Assembly: GCA_002421425.1 (NCBI GenBank)
Contig: DIJZ01000024.1
Location: 349-64,348, forward strand
DNA length: 64,000 nt
DNA from: a candidate division WOR-3 bacterium UBA5631
GTDB lineage: Bacteria; Hydrothermota; Hydrothermia; UBA1063
Direction: 5' to 3'
Shown here: positions 13,697 to 23,539 of the stretch, in pieces
How the letters are laid out: the number at the start of each line of letters is the position of its first letter
How positions within the stretch are numbered: position 1 is the stretch's first letter
Position numbers and translations under genes: made by a program
The notes under the pieces: generated by a model
What the model saw: the letters and a program-made list of their open reading frames with translations, nothing else
What the model was told of the DNA's origin: nothing
Databases searched by the model: none

Positions 13697-16192
13697 TTAT
13701 TTATTTGACGCGGAAAGCCAGCTGTCCCCCACTCCAATCTCTACTCTCAGAGGGACACTAAGAGTTACATTTGCTTCCATTTTTTCCTTCACTATTTCCT
13801 TAGCTGCCTCTACCTCTGTCTCGGGCACTTCCAGGAGCAATTCATCGTGAACCTGCAATATTATGCGGGAATTCATCGATTTTCTTTTAAACTCCTCATA
13901 TATTTCTACCATACCGAGCTTGATAATATCGGCAGCCGTCCCCTGAATAGGCGTATTGATGGCGATTCTTCTACCCTGTTCAAATAGATTTGGGTCTCCA
14001 GAATTCAAATACGGAATACGGCGTATCCTACCGAATAGTGTCTTCACGAAACCGTTCTTCTGTGCGAAATCGACATTCAGCTGAATCCACTTCATTACAC
14101 CCGGGAAAGATGCAAAGAAGTTTTGAATAATTGCCTCTGCCTCACTTTGAGTCACATTTAATTCTTTGGCAAGTCCGTAGGGAGAAATGCCATAAATAAT
14201 TCCAAAGTTTACGGTTTTTGCTTTCCTCCTCTCACTTTCTGTGATCTCCTGGATCCGTTTGCGAAAAATATAGGAGGCAGTCATAGAATGAACATCCAGA
14301 TTATTCTCAAAGATCTCCTTAAGATTCTTATCTCCCGAAAAATGAGCAAGGATTCGCAGCTCAATCTGAGAGTAGTCAGCGGTCATAATCTTGTAACCCT
14401 TTTCAGGTACAATAATGTCCCTAACACTTCTTCCAAGTTCTGACCTCACAGGGATAGTCTGAAAGTTTGGATTTACGCAGGAAATCCTTCCCGTTGCTGC
14501 GCCTACCTGATTGTACGTAGGAAAAATCCGGTGACTCTTTTGATCCACGAGGTTTATAAACGCGTCAACATAGGCACTCTTCAGTTTAAAAACCTCCCTG
14601 TAATCGAGGATCGCTGCAGGAAGGGGATGAATCTCGGCGAGTTTTGCGAGAGTCTCCTCATCAGTAGAGTATCCTGTTTTTGTCTTCTTCACGGGCTTCA
14701 ATTTATGCTTCGTAAAAAGGACTTCTGCGATCTGCTTGGGTGAATTAATGTTAAACTTCGTTCCCGCCAAATCGTAAATCTTCTCCTTAATCTCCTCTAG
14801 ATTTCTGGCCATCTCTTCGCTCATTTTTTCTATTTTGTCGACATCAATCTTAATTCCAACTTCTTCCATATCCGCAAGGACTTTCTGGAGTGGGAGTTCG
14901 ATCTTCTCCAGAACTTCCTGAAGGCACCACCGCTGAATTTCCTTTTGAAGTAAATTATAGGCAATTCTAGAGGCAGCGCAAATCTCTGCGACCCTTCGTT
15001 CTTCGTTATCCCGAGAAAGTCCGATACCTGAATATTCGAGAAAAATTGTCTCCGGGTCGAATTTTGGTCTATCACTGTCAAGCAAAAATGCGGAAATCAG
15101 AATATCAAAATCAAAATGAATGGTCTTCTTTATTTTTTTGAACTGCTTCTTCGTTTCGAAGGATATAATTCTACCACGGAATTTGTCAAGGAATTGAATA
15201 CCAGCATCTAGAGGAATCCTGTAGACCACCTTTCCATTAGAAGAAATTAAGACATTTTCATTGAAACATTCAACAGAAATTACCTCTGCATTCAGCAAAT
15301 CCATAGGAATGAATGTTGTTTCAACCAACTCTACACTGGGTTTTTGAGCAATTTCTCGCATAAGTGAGTAAAATTCCATTTCACCAAAAACCTTGAAAAG
15401 CTTCTCCTTATTCCACTCCCTGACTCTTAAATCCTCTAGATCGAATTCTATTGGGATGTTATCCCTGAGTTTAACAAGGCTAAGTGCCTCAAAGAACCTA
15501 TCCTTGTAGGACTTTATGTGTTCAATTATCTCGTCTTTTACGTCAGGACTTTCCATCCTTTCAATGATGTTTCCATAGTTTCTTATGAGTTCTGCAGCAG
15601 TTTTTTCTCCTATGCCCGGGATTCCCGGGACGTTATCAATCTTATCACCTGTTAGAGCAAGAAGAATCGGAATGTCCTGAGGTTTAACACCAAACCTATC
15701 TTCAATGTCTTTTTCAGTTAGAATCTTAACTTCTCCCTGCCTCGTGTCAACGATTTTTATGCGCTCACTCACAAGCTGAAAAAGATCTTTATCCAAAGAA
15801 GCAATGAAGACCTCCATTCCCCGTCGTTCAGCCTCTTTACCGAGAGAAGCAATCACATCATCAGCTTCCACCTCAGGAATTTCAAATCTCTTTATGTTGA
15901 ATCCATCAAGTATTTCTTTAATATAGGACAACTGTATTACAAGGTCAAGAGGTGTCTTTGGCCTCTGGGCCTTATAGTCTTCAAAGATCTCGTGCCGGAA
16001 AGTTTTACCCTTTGCATCAAATATAACAGCAATATGTGTCGGCTTTATCTCATTCAGGAGCTTGAGCAAAGAGTTTGTAAAAGCGTAGGGCGCACTGGTT
16101 TTGATTCCCTTGCTACTTATGAGTGGTTTGTCTTTAAATGCAAAATAGGATCTGTAAGCCAGCGAAGCACCATCAATCAAGAGTAATCTCAT
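13697..16192 (-). CDS. polA: DNA polymerase I
   Basis: The N-terminus is a 5'-3' exonuclease (MRLLLIDGASLAYRSYFA). The C-terminal polymerase domain has motifs DYSQIELRILAH, RRKAKTVNFGIIYG and QVHDELL. Confidence 0.9.
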   Translation of the reverse strand: MRLLLIDGASLAYRSYFAFKDKPLISSKGIKTSAPYAFTNSLLKLLNEIKPTHIAVIFDAKGKTFRHEIFEDYKAQRPKTPLDLVIQLSYIKEILDGFNIKRFEIPEVEADDVIASLGKEAERRGMEVFIASLDKDLFQLVSERIKIVDTRQGEVKILTEKDIEDRFGVKPQDIPILLALTGDKIDNVPGIPGIGEKTAAELIRNYGNIIERMESPDVKDEIIEHIKSYKDRFFEALSLVKLRDNIPIEFDLEDLRVREWNKEKLFKVFGEMEFYSLMREIAQKPSVELVETTFIPMDLLNAEVISVECFNENVLISSNGKVVYRIPLDAGIQFLDKFRGRIISFETKKQFKKIKKTIHFDFDILISAFLLDSDRPKFDPETIFLEYSGIGLSRDNEERRVAEICAASRIAYNLLQKEIQRWCLQEVLEKIELPLQKVLADMEEVGIKIDVDKIEKMSEEMARNLEEIKEKIYDLAGTKFNINSPKQIAEVLFTKHKLKPVKKTKTGYSTDEETLAKLAEIHPLPAAILDYREVFKLKSAYVDAFINLVDQKSHRIFPTYNQVGAATGRISCVNPNFQTIPVRSELGRSVRDIIVPEKGYKIMTADYSQIELRILAHFSGDKNLKEIFENNLDVHSMTASYIFRKRIQEITESERRKAKTVNFGIIYGISPYGLAKELNVTQSEAEAIIQNFFASFPGVMKWIQLNVDFAQKNGFVKTLFGRIRRIPYLNSGDPNLFEQGRRIAINTPIQGTAADIIKLGMVEIYEEFKRKSMNSRIILQVHDELLLEVPETEVEAAKEIVKEKMEANVTLSVPLRVEIGVGDSWLSASNK

Positions 16193-16227
16193 AAAAATAT
16201 TATAAAGTCTTGATCACAATCACTATT

Positions 16228-16626
16228 TTAATTGAAAAACCTGCTTTTTAGGAGTCCATAAAAAATCTGGGCTGCAACAAGCGAAATTGCAAGGATTCCG
16301 TAAATTCTGTGAACATTTCTACTCAACTTTCTTCTTCTGAAAAGAATCCCACTGAGCAACGTAAAGGAAACGTATATGTATATAGCTAATCCAAGAATGC
16401 AATGAACATTCGCTAAACCCCTAAAGAGAACGAGCATAAAACCTACCGCAAAGGTCATCAGTACAATTGTTACAAAAATAAAGAAATGGTGCCTTCTTAG
16501 ATTGTGCCTCTTCGCAAAGATAACTGCCATAATTACCGAAAACAACGCTAACAAATTTGCTACCAGATGAAGGACAATCAAGATATCACCTCCCAATCTG
16601 AATTGTAGTTGAACCCTTGAACACAT
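16228..16626 (-). CDS. hypothetical 4-TM membrane protein (His-rich, possible b-type cytochrome partner)
   Basis: It has four hydrophobic helices with conserved His/Arg at the helix ends. It overlaps the upstream secreted protein gene, so the start is probably internal. Confidence 0.3.
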   Translation of the reverse strand: MCSRVQLQFRLGGDILIVLHLVANLLALFSVIMAVIFAKRHNLRRHHFFIFVTIVLMTFAVGFMLVLFRGLANVHCILGLAIYIYVSFTLLSGILFRRRKLSRNVHRIYGILAISLVAAQIFYGLLKSRFFN

Positions 16627-17164
16627 CGTGCTTTCTTTTCAGATTGCTGTCCCTGGCAGAGGCAAAGATGATTTTAACCTTTTTCCCCTCAGCAACGGGC
16701 CTGTCAAAGGGATCTCTGGTATCAAGGAGCCTTTTGAACTCCACCACTACATATAGAGAATCTCTTTTCCCAGCTGAAACAATCAAATCCTCCCTCCCTC
16801 CAAAATCGGTATCTGCCTTGTGAGGACCGTAGATTCCTCTGGAATATGCATCTATGATCTTCACCTTACTCCCTTCGTCATATGCAATAATCATATCCGC
16901 ACCTTTCATTGCCACCTCGGGATCTATTCCGAGACCGACCCATCCCTTGCTTTTCACCTTTACTGCAGCATAGATATAAAGGCTATCGATAAAATAGTAA
17001 AAAAAGAATTCACCCGGTTTCAGTTCCACAACATACTTGTATTCAGTTTTTCCAATAATGCCATCAGCCTTCCAGCCAGCCCCATTGCCCTCCTGTCCCC
17101 AGGATAATGAACATGTTGCAGCACACAAAATATACATAGTTACCTTTCTCAGGTCCACTCTCAT
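16586..17164 (-). CDS. secreted hypothetical protein, DOMON-like beta-sandwich (tentative)
   Basis: It has a signal peptide (MRVDLRKVTMYILCAATCSLSWG). The pattern of beta strands and a conserved Met/His is consistent with DOMON/ethylbenzene-dehydrogenase-like heme-binding domains. Similarity is weak. Confidence 0.35.
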   Translation of the reverse strand: MRVDLRKVTMYILCAATCSLSWGQEGNGAGWKADGIIGKTEYKYVVELKPGEFFFYYFIDSLYIYAAVKVKSKGWVGLGIDPEVAMKGADMIIAYDEGSKVKIIDAYSRGIYGPHKADTDFGGREDLIVSAGKRDSLYVVVEFKRLLDTRDPFDRPVAEGKKVKIIFASARDSNLKRKHDVFKGSTTIQIGR

Positions 17165-17278
17165 ACTTCCTCCTCAATATTGATACTAATTTTAAAGCAC
17201 AGACCAAGACTTCATTTGAAAAAGAAAAAAGGCACGGAACGTATAACTTTCCCTGTATTGCATTATACTTATATTACT

Positions 17279-17764
17279 ATGATTAAAAGGTCGCTGTTTA
17301 TAATACTGATTGGAGTTTCGGTGCTCTCAGCCCGCACAGCGGGCTCCATGTTTCGAATTGGTGCAAACACATCCGTGCTATTTGAAAACGGAAATGCATA
17401 CCCCGTCATTGGCATTACCGCTGGATTCTACCCAGTAAACTTCTTCTTCATGGAGGGGAGTGGGGAATATGTTTTCAGAAATGATTATAAAGAATTCGCT
17501 CTTCCGGTCACAGCAAACTTAGCATATAAAACCAGATACTTTCAGCCCTATGCAGGGGCTGGCATTGCCTACCATCTTTACGACTATTCAGATCATGATG
17601 AACATTCCTTCGGAGCGAGGGTCAAAACGGGTGTGACACTTTTCGATACCAAGGGGGCTTCAGGTTCCTTCGAAGTAACTTACGATGTCCCAGACCTGAA
17701 AGGCTCTAAAGGCAGATGGTACTTCACAGGAAGACTTGATAAGAGTTTTAACCTGCAATTTTGA
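17279..17764 (+). CDS. putative outer-membrane beta-barrel protein (OmpW/opacity-like)
   Basis: I start at internal ATG 17279 (MIKRSLFIILIGVSVLSA signal peptide). It has alternating aromatic/Gly beta-strands and a C-terminal …SFNLQF. Confidence 0.45.
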   Translation: MIKRSLFIILIGVSVLSARTAGSMFRIGANTSVLFENGNAYPVIGITAGFYPVNFFFMEGSGEYVFRNDYKEFALPVTANLAYKTRYFQPYAGAGIAYHLYDYSDHDEHSFGARVKTGVTLFDTKGASGSFEVTYDVPDLKGSKGRWYFTGRLDKSFNLQF

Positions 17765-17772
17765 GAAAACAG

Positions 17773-17801
17773 TTGAATTAACGAATATAAGCTCTTAACA
17801 T
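17773..17801 (+). promoter_or_regulatory. sigma70-like promoter TTGAAT, 17 nt spacer, TAACAT; 8 nt before ATG 17810
   Basis: TTGAAT is at 17773-17778, followed by a 17-nt spacer and TAACAT at 17796-17801. The first ATG is at 17810 and there is no SD sequence. Confidence 0.35.
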
Positions 17802-17809
17802 TGATACAT

Positions 17810-18652
17810 ATGAAAGAGAGTGTTCGCGTTGGACTTGCGCAGATCTCTGCACGACTTGGGGATATAGAATATAACAAGTCTCAAATAATAAATTCCCTGA
17901 AGATAGCAAAGAACGAAGGTGCTGAGATTGTTATATTTCCTGAACTTGCAACAATCGGGTACGGTTCTGGGGATATCTACCTGGACAAAGTGGATGAGAA
18001 TCTTGACGCACTTGCACACATCGTGGAAGAGGCTGGCAGAATCGGCATCTGGGCGGTCGTGGGATATGTAGAGAAGGATGAGCGTGGTTTCTTCTATAAC
18101 GCAGCGGCTTTGATTGGTGAAGGAAGAATTCAGGGAAGATTCGCAAAAACCCAGCTGGTGAACTACAGATTGTTTGACGAAAAGAAATACTTTAAACCGG
18201 GATCTTTACTTCCGGTATTTGAGACCCCTTTTGGAAAGATTGGGATTCTCATAAGCGAGGATGTTTGGTTCCCTGAAGCTGCAAGAGCTTTAACCTTTAG
18301 GGGAGCCCAGCTGATTTTTGTTCTCTCTGCATCTCCCTTCGATAGAGGAAAAGTCGAAATCTGGGAGGATTTTCTCAAAGTAAGGGTACTTGACAACATC
18401 CTTCCAATTGTCTTCGTGAATATGAGCGGTGTCCAGGAAGGAGTTACTTATTGGGGTGGTAGTGCAGTATATTCAGCCTCAGGGAAAGTTGTAAAAAGGT
18501 TAAAGATTATAGAAACTGATTACGATACCGTCACCGTGGACCTCGAGGAATCCAAAAGGTTACGAAGAAGAGATATCAGAATCCGCGAAGTCAGAAAAGA
18601 AATCCTTGAAGAAGTACTTAGGGCCTTTGAGGAGATGACACGATGGATATAG
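17810..18652 (+). CDS. carbon-nitrogen hydrolase (nitrilase superfamily), glutaminase subunit of a split glutamine-dependent NAD synthetase
   Basis: It has the catalytic Glu context VIFPELATIGY and the Lys context RFAKTQL. The expected Cys motif reads GILISEDVWFPE, with Ser where Cys is expected. It overlaps nadE by 10 nt. Confidence 0.65.
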   Translation: MKESVRVGLAQISARLGDIEYNKSQIINSLKIAKNEGAEIVIFPELATIGYGSGDIYLDKVDENLDALAHIVEEAGRIGIWAVVGYVEKDERGFFYNAAALIGEGRIQGRFAKTQLVNYRLFDEKKYFKPGSLLPVFETPFGKIGILISEDVWFPEAARALTFRGAQLIFVLSASPFDRGKVEIWEDFLKVRVLDNILPIVFVNMSGVQEGVTYWGGSAVYSASGKVVKRLKIIETDYDTVTVDLEESKRLRRRDIRIREVRKEILEEVLRAFEEMTRWI

Positions 18653-19494
18653 ACATTTACCTGAAGGAAGAAGAGCTTGAGCTTTACAGGAAAATTATAG
18701 TTCATTCAATTAAAGACCGTCTTGAAAAACTCAGAGTCTCCCTTGGGATAGTGGCCCTTTCAGGAGGAGTTGATTCTTCCCTTGTTGCTGTTTTGAGCAA
18801 AGAAGCCCTAAAAGATAAATTACTCTGCTTAATAATGCCTGAAACCGGCGTTTCAAGTCAAGAGGATATCGACCATGCAATGGAACTGGTTAGAAAATTT
18901 GATATAAATTACCGCATCATTCCGATTAACGGAGCTATTGAGTGGTTTAACCAGCGTTATGAAGAAATCAAAGGACCCAACAAAAACGAAAGACTCGCAA
19001 TTGCGAACGTAAAACCAAGAATTAGAATGATAATGAATTATCTCTACGCCAATACGTTAAACGGATTCGTAATCGGCACTTCCAACAAAACCGAACTCTT
19101 GCTTGGATATGGCACAAAATATGGCGATATTGCAGTTGATTTCTATCCAATTGGAGATCTTTACAAAACCCAGGTATGGCAGCTTTCAGACTATGTTGGA
19201 ATCCCAACGGAAATTATAAGGAAGAAACCCACTGCAGGTCTGTGGGTCGGTCAAACCGACGAAGACGAACTTGGCCACACCTACTATGAGATTGACAGGG
19301 TTCTTTACTGCCTCGTAGAACTGGAACTCTCCGTTCGCGAAACTTGCAAAGTCCTTGGTATTCCGAGAGATGCAGTAATGGACATCTATAGAAGAGTGGT
19401 TTCTTCTGAGCACAAAAGAAAGATCCCCACAATTACCAGGCTATCCCGTATGTGCCTTGACAAAGACTGGAAATATCCCAGTGACCGACACTGA
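18643..19494 (+). CDS. nadE: NAD+ synthetase (PP-loop amidotransferase domain)
   Basis: It has the SGGVDSS PP-loop, NYLYANTLNGFVIGTSNKTE and YGDIAVDF motifs. Confidence 0.85.
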   Translation: MDIDIYLKEEELELYRKIIVHSIKDRLEKLRVSLGIVALSGGVDSSLVAVLSKEALKDKLLCLIMPETGVSSQEDIDHAMELVRKFDINYRIIPINGAIEWFNQRYEEIKGPNKNERLAIANVKPRIRMIMNYLYANTLNGFVIGTSNKTELLLGYGTKYGDIAVDFYPIGDLYKTQVWQLSDYVGIPTEIIRKKPTAGLWVGQTDEDELGHTYYEIDRVLYCLVELELSVRETCKVLGIPRDAVMDIYRRVVSSEHKRKIPTITRLSRMCLDKDWKYPSDRH

Positions 19495-20047
19495 GAAAAG
19501 AAATCTCACCAGAAGCTGGGTGTTCTTTCTTCTTGCCGTAATTCTGTATCAAATTCTTCATGAAGGTTCTCACCTCCTAACATCCCTTTTTTTCGACGAA
19601 TTTGAAGGACTTAGATTTGCGACTATTGGTCCAGAAGTGGTTTACAAAACACCGGTCCCTGAGAGAAGCGGGTTTCACTGGACTTTAATCTCGGGAATGA
19701 GTAGTATCATAACAATAATCCTCGGATATATTTTGCTCATTAACTCAGAAAAAACAGCTTCTTTAAGAAATGTTAACCTTAAGGCTCTGTTGTTCTACAC
19801 AACGCTAGTTCTGCTCATTACAGATCCTTTAAATCTTTCTGTCGGACCCTTCCTCTACGGAGGAGATGCTCCGGGAGTAGCAAAAGGTATGAATGTTCCT
19901 GTGTATCTCGTTCAGGGGCTGTTCTTTGTGATTTTCCTGATAAATAGGGAACTTGTTGCATCGATTCTGCTTTCAACATACAAAATAGAGACAAAGCATT
20001 TCCTTTTTAGGAGCTGGCTTAGAAAATCCCCCAGAGTCGGAAGATAA
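19457..20047 (+). CDS. hypothetical polytopic membrane protein with HExxH (HEGSH) motif, putative zincin-like
   Basis: HEGSHLL lies in the first TM region and there are 4-5 predicted helices. The start is uncertain because the ORF overlaps the nadE 3' end by 38 nt. Confidence 0.35.
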   Translation: MTKTGNIPVTDTEKRNLTRSWVFFLLAVILYQILHEGSHLLTSLFFDEFEGLRFATIGPEVVYKTPVPERSGFHWTLISGMSSIITIILGYILLINSEKTASLRNVNLKALLFYTTLVLLITDPLNLSVGPFLYGGDAPGVAKGMNVPVYLVQGLFFVIFLINRELVASILLSTYKIETKHFLFRSWLRKSPRVGR

Positions 20048-20117
20048 CTGGAAAAAGTCTTTAGATTCGCGTAGCAGAGATTCATTCATCAAATCTTCAA
20101 AAAATCTCTATGAATGA

Positions 20118-22553
20118 CTATTCTAAGGGGGCTTTTTCAAACTTCACTTCCCCATCGTAATCTATTACAATCCTGTCTCCTGCTTTGAACTCACCCGCAA
20201 GAATTTTATCAGCTATCGGATTTTCGACATACACCTGGATAGATCTCCTCAAAGGCCTTGCGCCAAGGTCAGGATTGTAGCCCGCTTCGGATAGGTACTC
20301 CACTAATTTTTCTGTCCAGGATACTTCAATTCCATTTTCTTTGAGACTGTCCTGCACTTCTTTAAGCTGAAGTTCCACAATCTCTTTAACTTCTTTGTGA
20401 CCGAGGGCGTTAAAGAACACGAATTCGTCTATCCTGTTCAAGAATTCAATCTTGAAGAATTTTAGAAGTTCTGGCATTATTGAATTTACCCTGGACTGAT
20501 GAACCTTCGTAAGTTCAGAATCTTTCTTAATAAATCCAATCTGAGGCCCTTCGGAGAACTGATATTGAATGTTGGATGTCATAATTATCAGGGTATTTTT
20601 GAAATCTACAACATGTCCCTGTGCATCGGTCAGTCTGCCGGCATCGAAAATCTGAAGCATTATGTTAAATACGTCTGGATGTGCCTTCTCAATCTCATCA
20701 AAAAGGATCACCTGATAGGGTCTTCGTCTGACAGCCTCCGTGAGCTGCCCACCTCTCTCAAAGCCAATGTATCCTGGAGGCGCTCCGATAAGCCTTGAAA
20801 CGGCGTGCTTTTCCATATACTCAGACATATCAATACGAAGGAGCGCATCTTCGTCGTTGAAAAGGAACCATGCAAGCTGTCTGGCGAGGTGGGTTTTTCC
20901 AACACCGGTGGGGCCAAGGAACATAAAAACGCCAATGGGTCTGTTTCTCTGACCAAGTCCGGCTCTTGAACGCCTTATAGCCTCTGCAACTACCTTTATA
21001 GCATAATCCTGTCCCTTCACTTTCTTCTTGAGTTCATCCTCTACATAAAGCAACCTCTTTGCCTCATCTTCAAGAAGCCTCATGGCAGGAATACCCGTCC
21101 ATCTGGAGACTACGTAAGCGATGTCATTTTCGTCAACAAAATCATCCATGTTCTTTTCCCTTAACCATGTTTCCTTCTTCCCTTCAAGCTCTTTTTCCAG
21201 GAATTCTACCTGTTTCTTCAGATTCTCAACCTCTCCTCTGTTGCTGAACTGATCCATTAGAGTTATCTGATCCCTCAATGAGGCAATTCTATTCTGCAGA
21301 GCCTTTATGTCCTCTGGCATATCTGAAAGTTTTATCCTTAAATACGAACAGGCTTCATCCAGAAGATCTATTGCCTTATCTGGTAACTTCCTGCCCTGAA
21401 CATATCTATCTGCAAGTTTCGCCGAAGCGATTATTGCAGAGTCAAGAATTTTAACTCTGTGATGTTCCTCAAATTTGTTTTTCAACCCTCTTAATATCTC
21501 TACCGTTTCCTCAATAGAAGGTTCCTTTACATAGACAGGCTGAAATCTCCTTTCCAGCGCGCCATCTTTTTCTATTCGCTCCCTGTACTCGTCAAGAGTG
21601 GTCGCTCCAATAACTCTGAGCTCCCCCGATGCAAGCCACGGCTTCAATAAGTTGGCAGCATCTATAGCTCCCTCTGCACCGCCTGCTCCAACTATCGTAT
21701 GAAGTTCATCTATGAAAAGAATGATACGGTCTTTCTGCCGCTTCACTTCATCTATCACCGCCTTCAATCTCTCTTCAAACTCACCCCTGAACTTCGAACC
21801 TGCAAGGAGAGCACCCATATCAAGCATAAGAATTCTTTTATCTCTTAAAAAATCAGGTACTTTCTTCTCATGGATTCTCTGGGCGAGCCCATGTACAATG
21901 GCAGTCTTCCCCACACCCGGTTCACCAATTAGAACAGGATTGTTTTTGGTTTTTCTCAGAATAATTTGAATTACCCTTTCTATTTCATCATTTCGACCTA
22001 TTACAGGATCAAGTTTCCCGGTTTCCGAAAGTTTTGTAACATCGACGGTATACTTCACAAGAGCATTGTATTTACTTTCAGCGGTGGGTTCAGTAACCCT
22101 CTGACTGCCGCGAATCTCGTAAAGAGCTTTGTAAATCTTTTCACGGTCGATCCCAAATTCCTTCAGAATCCTTGCTGAAGGGCCACCAGCTGAATTTTCA
22201 ATTGCGAGAAGAAAATGCTCCTGGGCAACATACTCGTCCTTCAGTTTTTCGGCTTCCACGAATGCCTGTTGGAGGACGTCCTGTGCTCTTGGTGTGATAT
22301 AAATCTGAACGGGCCTGGATCCCTGAATCTCCGTCTGTGGTACCTTTAAAAGAGCCTCTTTCAGTTTTTCCTTAACCAATACAGGATGTATATTTAGCTT
22401 CTCAAATATTTGAGAAACCACCCCTCCTTCTTCCTCCAGAAGCCCGTAAAAAATGTGTTCAACATCCAGTTGATTGTGCTTGAATTTTACCAGCGCCTCC
22501 TGTGCCCGTATAAGAGCCTCCTGAGCGCCCTCAGTAAATTTGTCCATTCTCAT
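20118..22553 (-). CDS. clpB: AAA+ disaggregase ClpB
   Basis: It has Clp_N repeats, two AAA modules ([22 protein letters not shown]) and a long coiled-coil M-domain between them. Confidence 0.85.
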
Positions 22554-22693
22554 TATTCAAAAACCTCCAGAACTGTTTATTGAATTAATAGCATCATAAA
22601 GGCGAACTGTAAAGGAAGAACGTTTCTCGCGAGTGGATTTAATGCTATTTCGTGCGTTTTCCCAGGTGTATCGATTAAAATTAATACACTACA

Positions 22694-23539
22694 ATGAAAG
22701 TGTTTAAGTATTTTGTTTTTTGCGGACTTTTTATATTTTTTCTGTATCTTTTTGCATATCCATTTCTTTTCAGGGTAAAATCTCTGGAGTCTGAGAATCC
22801 TGTTCAAACGGCTCTGATGATCTACAGGATCCATCAGTGGAAATCGCAGGGGAAAAATATTAGGATATCCCATACATGGGTGCCACTAAAGAGAATATCA
22901 CCATACCTGGTAAAAGCAGTTTTGATCTCAGAAGATGATAAATTTTTCCAGCATGAAGGATTTGACCTTGAAGGAATCAAACTCGCCATAGAGAAGAATA
23001 TTAAGAAAAAGAAATTAAAATATGGAGGGAGTACTATAAGCCAGCAACTCGCGAAGAATCTGTTTCTTGGACCACGAAAAAGTCTCGTAAGAAAAATTCA
23101 CGAAGCGATTCTGACAGTGAGGATTGAGAAAACTCTGTCCAAACGAAGAATCCTAGAGCTTTATCTTAATGTTGCCGAATGGGGTCCGGGTATATTTGGT
23201 ATTGAAGCTGCATCAGAATACTACTTTTCAAAACCAGCAATTACCCTCACCCCTGAGGAAGCTGCTTTACTTGCTGCTGTTTTACCAAACCCGCAGAAAT
23301 ATTCTCCCGTTAACCCATCAAGATACATAAGTCAAAGGGCAGAAAAGATTCTTTACATAATGAAATTGAGGAATATCATTTCAGAAGAGTATGACAGTAA
23401 TGTAACAAAATCTACACATGATTCACTTTCTAAAGATTCACTCGGTATATATCATGAAACACCACAGGACACATTGAACGTTTACGACACACTGCCAGGC
23501 GCCTCAAGCACCACGAACCTTCAAAATTCAGAAAATTGA
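22694..23539 (+). CDS. mtgA: monofunctional peptidoglycan glycosyltransferase (GT51)
   Basis: It has an N-terminal TM helix and GT51 motifs ISEDDKFFQHEGFD and GGSTISQQLAKNLFL…RK. There is no transpeptidase domain. Confidence 0.75.
   Translation: MKVFKYFVFCGLFIFFLYLFAYPFLFRVKSLESENPVQTALMIYRIHQWKSQGKNIRISHTWVPLKRISPYLVKAVLISEDDKFFQHEGFDLEGIKLAIEKNIKKKKLKYGGSTISQQLAKNLFLGPRKSLVRKIHEAILTVRIEKTLSKRRILELYLNVAEWGPGIFGIEAASEYYFSKPAITLTPEEAALLAAVLPNPQKYSPVNPSRYISQRAEKILYIMKLRNIISEEYDSNVTKSTHDSLSKDSLGIYHETPQDTLNVYDTLPGASSTTNLQNSEN

Follow-up and report, generated by a model that had tools for sequence, protein, structure and literature searches.

A hot-spring bacterium of the Hydrothermia/WOR-3 lineage, candidate division WOR-3 bacterium UBA5631, encodes a two-subunit NAD synthetase whose glutaminase-type partner carries a serine in place of the catalytic cysteine. 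The nitrilase superfamily, to which this partner belongs by fold, is defined by a Glu-Lys-Cys triad. In the 64,000-nucleotide stretch of contig DIJZ01000024.1 termed the window here, the gene for the partner (nit, encoding the G subunit) is directly followed by nadE, which encodes the single-domain synthetase (the S subunit). Ser149 of the G subunit recurs in related lineages, where it arose at least twice, each time alongside replacement of an otherwise invariant arginine, Arg126, by lysine, and the protein that bears it is held under strong purifying selection. From this pattern we infer that glutamine hydrolysis may have been lost or attenuated, that the synthetase may use ammonia, and that the G subunit may persist as a scaffold.

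Placement of the serine draws on sequence and fold alike. When the G subunit was compared with all PDB sequences using phmmer, 'kiGILISEDVW' fell opposite 'kfGvLICEDiW' of 5kha (Acinetobacter baumannii) and 'kfGvvICEDvW' of 4f4h (Burkholderia thailandensis), while the serine of 5H8K, a structure of an engineered Cys-to-Ser mutant, aligned directly with Ser149. An earlier, sequence-only reading of the window had proposed that serine replaces the catalytic cysteine, and had called for alignment with characterized glutamine-dependent NadE N-terminal domains; that alignment, by sequence and by fold, sets Ser149 on the cysteine of 5kha and 4f4h and bears the proposal out. The same reading had allowed that a cysteine elsewhere in the protein might occupy the catalytic position. 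Since the window G subunit contains zero cysteines in its 280 amino acids, that arrangement is impossible, and we ruled it out.

Around the serine, the residues expected of a glutaminase are recognizable. Glu45 of FPEL and Lys113 of AKTQL, already picked out as the Glu and Lys of the triad in the sequence-only reading, occupy invariant family columns. Residues Tyr119-Glu124 (YRLFDE), which include the second glutamate, correspond to the 'YRE loop' (Tyr127-Glu132 of Mycobacterium tuberculosis NadE), whose residues couple the two NadE active sites (PMC6946656). Glu150 and the gating Trp153 are likewise intact.

Family membership of both proteins is firmly established. The G subunit matches the Pfam family CN_hydrolase (PF00795) over residues 6-252 (E=1e-37); its best NCBIfam match, spanning positions 2-261, is the N-terminal half of the fused NAD+ synthase PRK13981, and its best PDB matches by sequence and fold are 5kha and 4f4h (E=4e-34). 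An AlphaFold2 (AF2) model of predicted local distance difference test score 88, of low confidence only in the loop at residues 118-123, returned the glutaminase domains of 4f4h and 5kha as top Foldseek matches (root-mean-square deviation 2.1-2.5 Å over about 250 residues), together with many nitrilase-superfamily structures at a probability of 1.00. In fold and profile, and in its Glu, Lys and second Glu, the G subunit is thus a structural member of the nitrilase superfamily, yet it lacks the Cys nucleophile and is no canonical thiol enzyme. Its partner is an equally clear NadE, matching NAD_synthase (PF02540) at E=8e-77 and PRK13980 with 304.7 bits against a curated cut-off of 255. The best PDB match of NadE, the archaeal single-domain enzyme 2e18 (E=4e-54), aligns to residue 263 only, and the fused 5kha and 4f4h align to residues 279-280; the intervening C-terminal extension of some 20 residues is strongly conserved in Ser and Cys lineages alike. 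An extended S-subunit C-terminal loop is a signature of two-component NAD synthetases (PMC3376133), and on sequence grounds the extension seen here would mark a two-component, glutamine-utilizing enzyme. NAD synthetases have been sorted into fused, clustered, remote and none classes (De Ingeniis et al. 2012, PMC3376133). The window pair shows three features of the clustered class, type C: a G subunit most like a fused G domain, an operon with single-domain nadE, and the C-terminal loop. Because the thiol is missing, glutamine use by the G/S complex looks doubtful.

The layout of the gene pair agrees with this assignment. The sequence-only reading had described a nitrilase-superfamily open reading frame (ORF) overlapping a NadE ORF by 10 nt, had regarded the two as a split form of the fused glutaminase-synthetase, and had suggested translational coupling. 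Both ORFs and their overlap are confirmed, the split form is consistent with the profile matches and the clustered gene order, and coupling fits both the overlaps at most related junctions and a GAGGAG 8 nt before the nadE ATG. The string gaggagatg is also found in close relatives of the window locus. Among 36 related WOR-3/Hydrothermia loci, nadE lies directly 3' of nit in 31, and most of these 31 junctions, not all, have a stop/start overlap of 4, 10 or 14 nt; the 10-nt form is found in L001, L003, L004, L081, L083 and L086 as well as the window, and most others have 4 or 14 nt. The 280-residue length of the G subunit is that of its homologues. Four WOR-3 loci (L015, L024, L025 and L026) carry a Cys-bearing nit-type homologue of the G subunit without nadE behind it, and these may represent a 'remote' (type R) arrangement or a different role of the gene.

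How widespread is the serine? Aligning the query with its best 120 homologues gave a nucleophile column of 110 Cys and 11 Ser among the 121 sequences. The Ser-bearing sequences form two groups: the window species with a UBA1063-like species, 81-100% identical to the query, and a Kamchatka hot-spring lineage with the GXS lineage, 72-73% identical. Exact or near-exact copies of the G subunit are annotated from Candidatus Hydrothermia or candidate division WOR-3 metagenome-assembled genomes. In all, Ser149 occurs in four species-level Hydrothermia/WOR-3 lineages (the window, L001, L003 and L004) on dozens of contigs, with P0001 found on 5 independent contigs, P0005 on 47, and the P0014 cluster holding seven members. 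Codon 149 is AGY in all Ser lineages and TGY in all Cys lineages, and the difference is therefore a single T-to-A transversion. The second group (L003, L004; P0011, P0013 and P0014) has acquired Cys206 (VNMCG), the sole cysteine there; residue 206 is Ser in close relatives, the window included, and Ala in most of the family.

Beyond the family the serine becomes rarer still. A wider set was assembled from a HMMER scan of 1.84 billion cluster representatives and from the more distant hits of the first search; its 176 representatives at 50% identity comprise 172 with Cys, 2 with Ser and 2 with Gly, and both Ser cases are fused NadEs. No deep Ser clade was found among the 121 aligned homologues or the 176 wider representatives. 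One of the fused cases, P0172/P0269 (575 aa, uncultured bacteria), reads GVTISEDILY with Trp153 replaced by Leu, and P0172 has also exchanged Tyr119 for Arg; an 80% identical sister, P0270, has Cys. The other, P0177 (550 aa), combines Ser with a degenerate PP-loop, LNSDIES for SGGxDS, for which reason both of its domains may be inactive. Arg126 is kept in both. These fused variants thus also bear a natural Ser, but they retain Arg126 and show further drift that the window family lacks.

Residue 149 appears to have changed more than once. Trees of flanking genes separate the window and L001 (Ser) with L002/L086 (Cys) from L003 and L004 (Ser) with L083/L087 (Cys), a split with bootstrap support of 100% for PolA, 88% for the FIST protein, 100% for the OMP-like protein, 87% for the HisKA kinase and 100% for concatenated markers. 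A Nit tree built without sites 126 and 149 recovers the same split at 71%. These trees support the conclusion that the Ser lineages are not monophyletic, and therefore that residues 149 and 126 each underwent two or more changes; when the tree is rooted with an outgroup, parsimony favors Ser having been gained twice in parallel. Spread of a single serine origin by gene conversion is the alternative. It can appeal to nit, nadE and clpB, which taken alone leave the quartet unresolved (site patterns 4:4:2, 3:3:1 and 6:5:4), but it is unlikely: PolA, FIST, the OMP-like protein and HisKA resolve the quartet, nucleotide identity over codons 120-155 is 0.74-0.76 between the two Ser groups and 0.75-0.76 to Cys relatives, and site 152, which follows the species tree, falls between the Ser-linked sites 149 and 158.

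Each change at 149 was accompanied by one at 126, two residues past Glu124. Position 126 is Arg in 81/81 Cys-bearing family members and Lys (AAA) in 10/10 Ser-bearing members; outside the family, 125/127 NadE-type 'CED' representatives have Arg. By rough inference, the chance that two changes at 126 would fall on the same two of some 180 branches as the Cys changes is about 1e-4. A distant stand-alone G-subunit-like protein, P0122 (275 aa, 38% identical to the query), combines a Cys nucleophile with Lys at the equivalent of 126, and Lys126 is therefore compatible with Cys. The neighboring Lys125, invariant in Cys lineages, reads K/M/L/L across the four Ser lineages. Residue 280 of NadE, in the C-terminal interface loop, is Ser/Ala/Ser/Ser in the window, L001, L003 and L004, and may be a site of inter-subunit co-variation with Ser149 and Lys126; most Cys lineages (90%) have Val there, and L083 has Thr. 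The paper on the M. tuberculosis and human NadEs does not mention a role for Arg126, nor does the MtCPA paper mention the equivalent Phe134.

The Ser-bearing subunit is evolving no faster than its Cys-bearing counterparts. Within each Ser group, Ser-Ser pairs have a nonsynonymous divergence (dN) of 0.09-0.12 with synonymous sites saturated. Synonymous divergence (dS) is saturated in all informative pairs, which therefore permits only an upper-bound dN/dS argument, and a two-codon indel invalidates the NadE values for L002, L086 and L081. At matched NadE divergence, protein divergence of the G subunit relative to that of NadE is 1.41 ± 0.33 for Ser-Ser pairs and 1.37 ± 0.39 for Cys-Cys pairs. 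Of the 77 positions where conservation among Cys lineages reaches 93% or more, 69 are unchanged across the four Ser lineages, and the changes at conserved positions cluster at 115, 125, 126 and 149. Relaxed constraint in the Ser lineages was rejected on the divergence ratio and on these 69 retained positions; the G subunit is under strong purifying selection. Given the low dN, the unaccelerated rate, and retention of the conserved positions and of the NadE interface loop, the subunit must still serve some function, and what it has undergone is focal remodeling, not decay. As about 90% of all conserved positions are retained, keeping the five to six catalytic residues is not significant on its own.

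What, then, does the serine form do? The sequence-only reading had offered two alternatives, a serine nucleophile or an impaired subunit acting as a scaffold, and these are still the two leading explanations. The reading we lean towards, to which we accord a little less than an even chance, is that the window G subunit is a strongly attenuated or inactive glutaminase, retained as the obligate partner of a mainly ammonia-fed NAD synthetase. In the mechanism we propose, NadE would adenylate deamido-NAD and then amidate it, with the nitrilase-fold G subunit docked on the NadE C-terminal loop. In relatives, the G subunit hydrolyzes glutamine and the ammonia travels through a tunnel. In the window, exchange of thiol for hydroxyl at residue 149, plus Arg126-to-Lys beside the second catalytic glutamate, would strongly attenuate the glutaminase, perhaps leaving a gamma-glutamyl O-ester to form and turn over slowly, and the NAD synthetase complex would run mainly on free ammonia. 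Selection would keep the G subunit for stability, assembly or shaping of the ammonia path, possibly because the S subunit evolved to work only inside a tight G/S complex. The Thermus thermophilus clustered pair offers a precedent: it forms a tight 1:1 G/S complex that uses glutamine but favors ammonia by about 50-fold, and the isolated S subunit keeps full activity with ammonia, the one donor it can use (PMC3376133). Given this ammonia preference and an S subunit active alone, losing glutamine use would be tolerable.

Several observations favor such an attenuated subunit. The serine sits exactly at the nucleophile position, and engineered Cys-to-Ser versions of the same fold are inactive or blocked: the reactivity of MtCPA C158S (PDB 5H8K/5H8L) is 'strongly diminished' (PMC4812014), and Escherichia coli Lnt C387S forms an O-acyl intermediate that is not passed on (PMC6828757). 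Natural Cys-to-Ser changes are rare and shallow (11/121 homologues, 2/176 representatives), and the other Ser-bearing NadE lineages (P0172/P0269 and P0177) show additional drift in the active site or PP-loop. The G protein, the NadE C-terminal loop and the gene overlap have all been conserved. Other points weigh against it. Were the free S subunit enough when ammonia is the donor, as in Thermus, one would expect an inactive G subunit to degenerate or disappear, yet the 69 retained positions include Glu45, Lys113, Glu124, Glu150, Tyr119 and Trp153. Both serines arose through the same T-to-A change, both with Arg126-to-Lys, which looks more like a selected, co-adapted site than random inactivation. 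Lnt C387S also demonstrates that a serine in this fold can acylate (PMC6828757), and acylation is the ammonia-releasing step in a glutaminase.

The same points lend themselves to the strongest rival reading, a real possibility if on balance an unlikely one: Ser149 would still act as the nucleophile, Glu45 serving as base, Lys113 and the backbone providing the oxyanion hole and Lys126 retuning the site, and glutamine hydrolysis would proceed via a gamma-glutamyl O-ester and feed ammonia to NadE. The G subunit would then be the nitrilase superfamily's first natural member with a serine nucleophile. Resistance to thiol oxidation could have favored the swap, an idea in keeping with a window protein entirely free of cysteine. 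In the Ser state, purifying selection is strong and the rate does not accelerate; apart from residue 149, every catalytic, glutamine-contacting and gating residue is preserved in the four Ser lineages, unlike in the fused P0172; and coupling to NadE is retained. A working serine would also fit the local species tree, which is well supported and places two or more changes at 149, each coupled to Arg126-to-Lys; codons 120-155 show no trace of gene conversion, and site 152 is interposed between 149 and 158. The O-acyl enzyme made by Lnt C387S points the same way. Against this, the Ser lineages are rare and of shallow depth, one or two further substitutions offer little scope for adapting a thiol site to a hydroxyl, and retention of catalytic residues says little where some 90% of conserved positions are kept. 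None of the superfamily's serine variants, natural or engineered, is known to turn over, Cys-to-Ser mutants of amidase, nitrilase, DCase and Nta1 included. That Ser149, Glu45, Lys113 and a co-evolved Lys126 make up a competent Ser-Glu-Lys site, with the paired changes as nature's minimal route from a thiol amidase to a hydroxyl one, is on balance unlikely but has a real chance of being right.

Less probable again is repurposing of the G subunit, whether to act on or bind some other amide or acyl compound or to serve as a glutamine-sensing, non-hydrolyzing regulator of NadE. A disabled nucleophile among retained glutamine-binding and YRE-loop residues would suit such a role, as would the focal changes at 125/126 and, within the interface loop, at residue 280 of NadE, and Cys-to-Ser mutants of this fold, such as MtCPA C158S, keep ligand binding (PMC4812014). 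We consider it improbable: positive evidence for it is lacking, and gene order, overlap and family membership are the same as in Cys-bearing sister lineages. An artefact of sequencing or assembly, or a decaying pseudogene, has next to no chance of being correct and was rejected: AGC and TGC are one nucleotide apart, but the serine is present in four species-level lineages, 72-81% identical to the window protein, and on so many independent contigs and assemblies that sequencing error is excluded, while the ORF is uninterrupted, dN lies far under the saturated dS and evolution of the protein has not sped up.

The genes around the pair, listed with its features in Table 1, are largely stable. The order polA, DOMON with a small membrane protein, nit-nadE, clpB, transglycosylase is the same in related Hydrothermia contigs. 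The small ORF directly upstream of nit, 194 aa as listed and 160-181 aa in relatives, keeps its synteny across the clade and has a sub-threshold match to Omptin (E=0.0046); it may encode a small beta-barrel protein of the outer membrane and may open the operon. Downstream, the last 38 nt of nadE are shared with a 196-aa ORF that begins with TTG. The product of this ORF is multi-pass and hydrophobic, has an HEGSH (HExxH-type) motif and no Pfam match, and is not conserved in place: in L083 nadE is followed immediately by clpB, and in L085 the site is taken by a DUF6512 gene in reverse orientation. A promoter and terminator scan of positions 17000-20300 gave nothing beyond shuffled expectation.

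Table 1. Features of the nit-nadE locus and its neighbors, in window coordinates
Feature	Position	Strand	Basis
G subunit (nit): nitrilase-fold, glutaminase-type subunit of two-subunit NAD synthetase; 280 aa, ATG start	17810-18652	+	Pfam, NCBIfam, phmmer, AF2, Foldseek
Glu45 codon GAA (FPEL), general base of the E-K-C triad	17942-17944	+	Invariant family column; E in 176/176 wider representatives
Lys113 codon AAA (AKTQL), catalytic lysine	18146-18148	+	Invariant family column; 176/176 representatives
Tyr119-Glu124 (YRLFDE), YRE-loop equivalent with second glutamate Glu124	18164-18181	+	Six columns invariant, Ser lineages included
Lys126 codon AAA, in place of otherwise invariant Arg; co-varies perfectly with Ser149 in the family	18185-18187	+	
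Ser149 codon AGC, at the catalytic Cys position	18254-18256	+	phmmer against PDB, fold, family alignment
Shine-Dalgarno-like GAGGAG for nadE, within the last G-subunit codons (Glu-Glu-Met), 8 nt before ATG	18629-18634	+	Sequence
10-nt overlap of nadE start codon and G-subunit stop codon, ATGGATATAG	18643-18652	+	
S subunit: single-domain NAD synthetase NadE, 283 aa	18643-19494	+	Pfam, NCBIfam, PDB
PP-loop ATP-pyrophosphatase motif SGGVDS, NadE residues 40-45	18760-18777	+	Aligns with SGG[VI]DS of 2e18 and 3p52
NadE C-terminal extension, about residues 264-283, TITRLSRMCLDKDWKYPSDRH	19432-19491	+	Alignment
NadE residue 280, C-terminal interface loop	19480-19482	+	
Small ORF directly upstream of nit	17180-17764	+	
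ORF overlapping the nadE 3' end	19457-20047	+	
Block of polA (831 aa), DOMON-domain protein and small membrane protein	13697-17164	-	
DOMON-domain protein	16586-17164	-	
Small membrane protein	16228-16626	-	
Block of clpB (811 aa) and transglycosylase	20118-23539		
Transglycosylase	22694-23539		

Either outcome would be instructive. Cys-to-Ser replacements studied so far kill or stall the enzyme, and this very replacement has occurred naturally on two or more occasions in an essential cofactor pathway, each with the same second-shell change. Should the Ser form prove active, a few changes would suffice to switch nucleophile chemistry in the nitrilase fold, and the protein would be an oxidation-resistant starting point for amidase and nitrilase engineering. 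Should it prove inactive, it would be a clean natural glutaminase pseudoenzyme kept as an obligate partner, and would bear on a long-standing issue brought up by De Ingeniis et al. (2012), namely which nitrogen source, glutamine or free ammonia, NAD synthetases draw on in vivo.

Among known systems, the closest parallel is T. thermophilus HB27 TTC1538/TTC1539 (type C), which likewise sets a stand-alone G gene beside a single-domain NadE with a C-terminal loop. The split arrangement has thus already been characterized, and only the serine is new: Cys-bearing enzymes are thiol glutaminases, whereas the window has Ser149 and Lys126 (the Thermus pair being compared here by its published description). 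With the fused dimeric enzymes 4F4H and 5KHA, the window pair has the FPEL, K...NY.(F)DE.RYF and G.LICED.W motifs in common, but these are single polypeptides with Cys and Arg, and the window enzyme is two polypeptides with Ser and Lys. Searching the literature for nitrilase-superfamily members that naturally carry the serine or are pseudoenzymes gave no relevant result, and, as far as we could find, a natural, recurrent and selected Ser-for-Cys replacement coupled to Arg126-to-Lys has gone undescribed. MtCPA C158S and Lnt C387S are laboratory mutants, inactive or stalled; the serine of the window, in contrast, is natural and recurrent, comes with Arg126-to-Lys, and has been maintained by selection.

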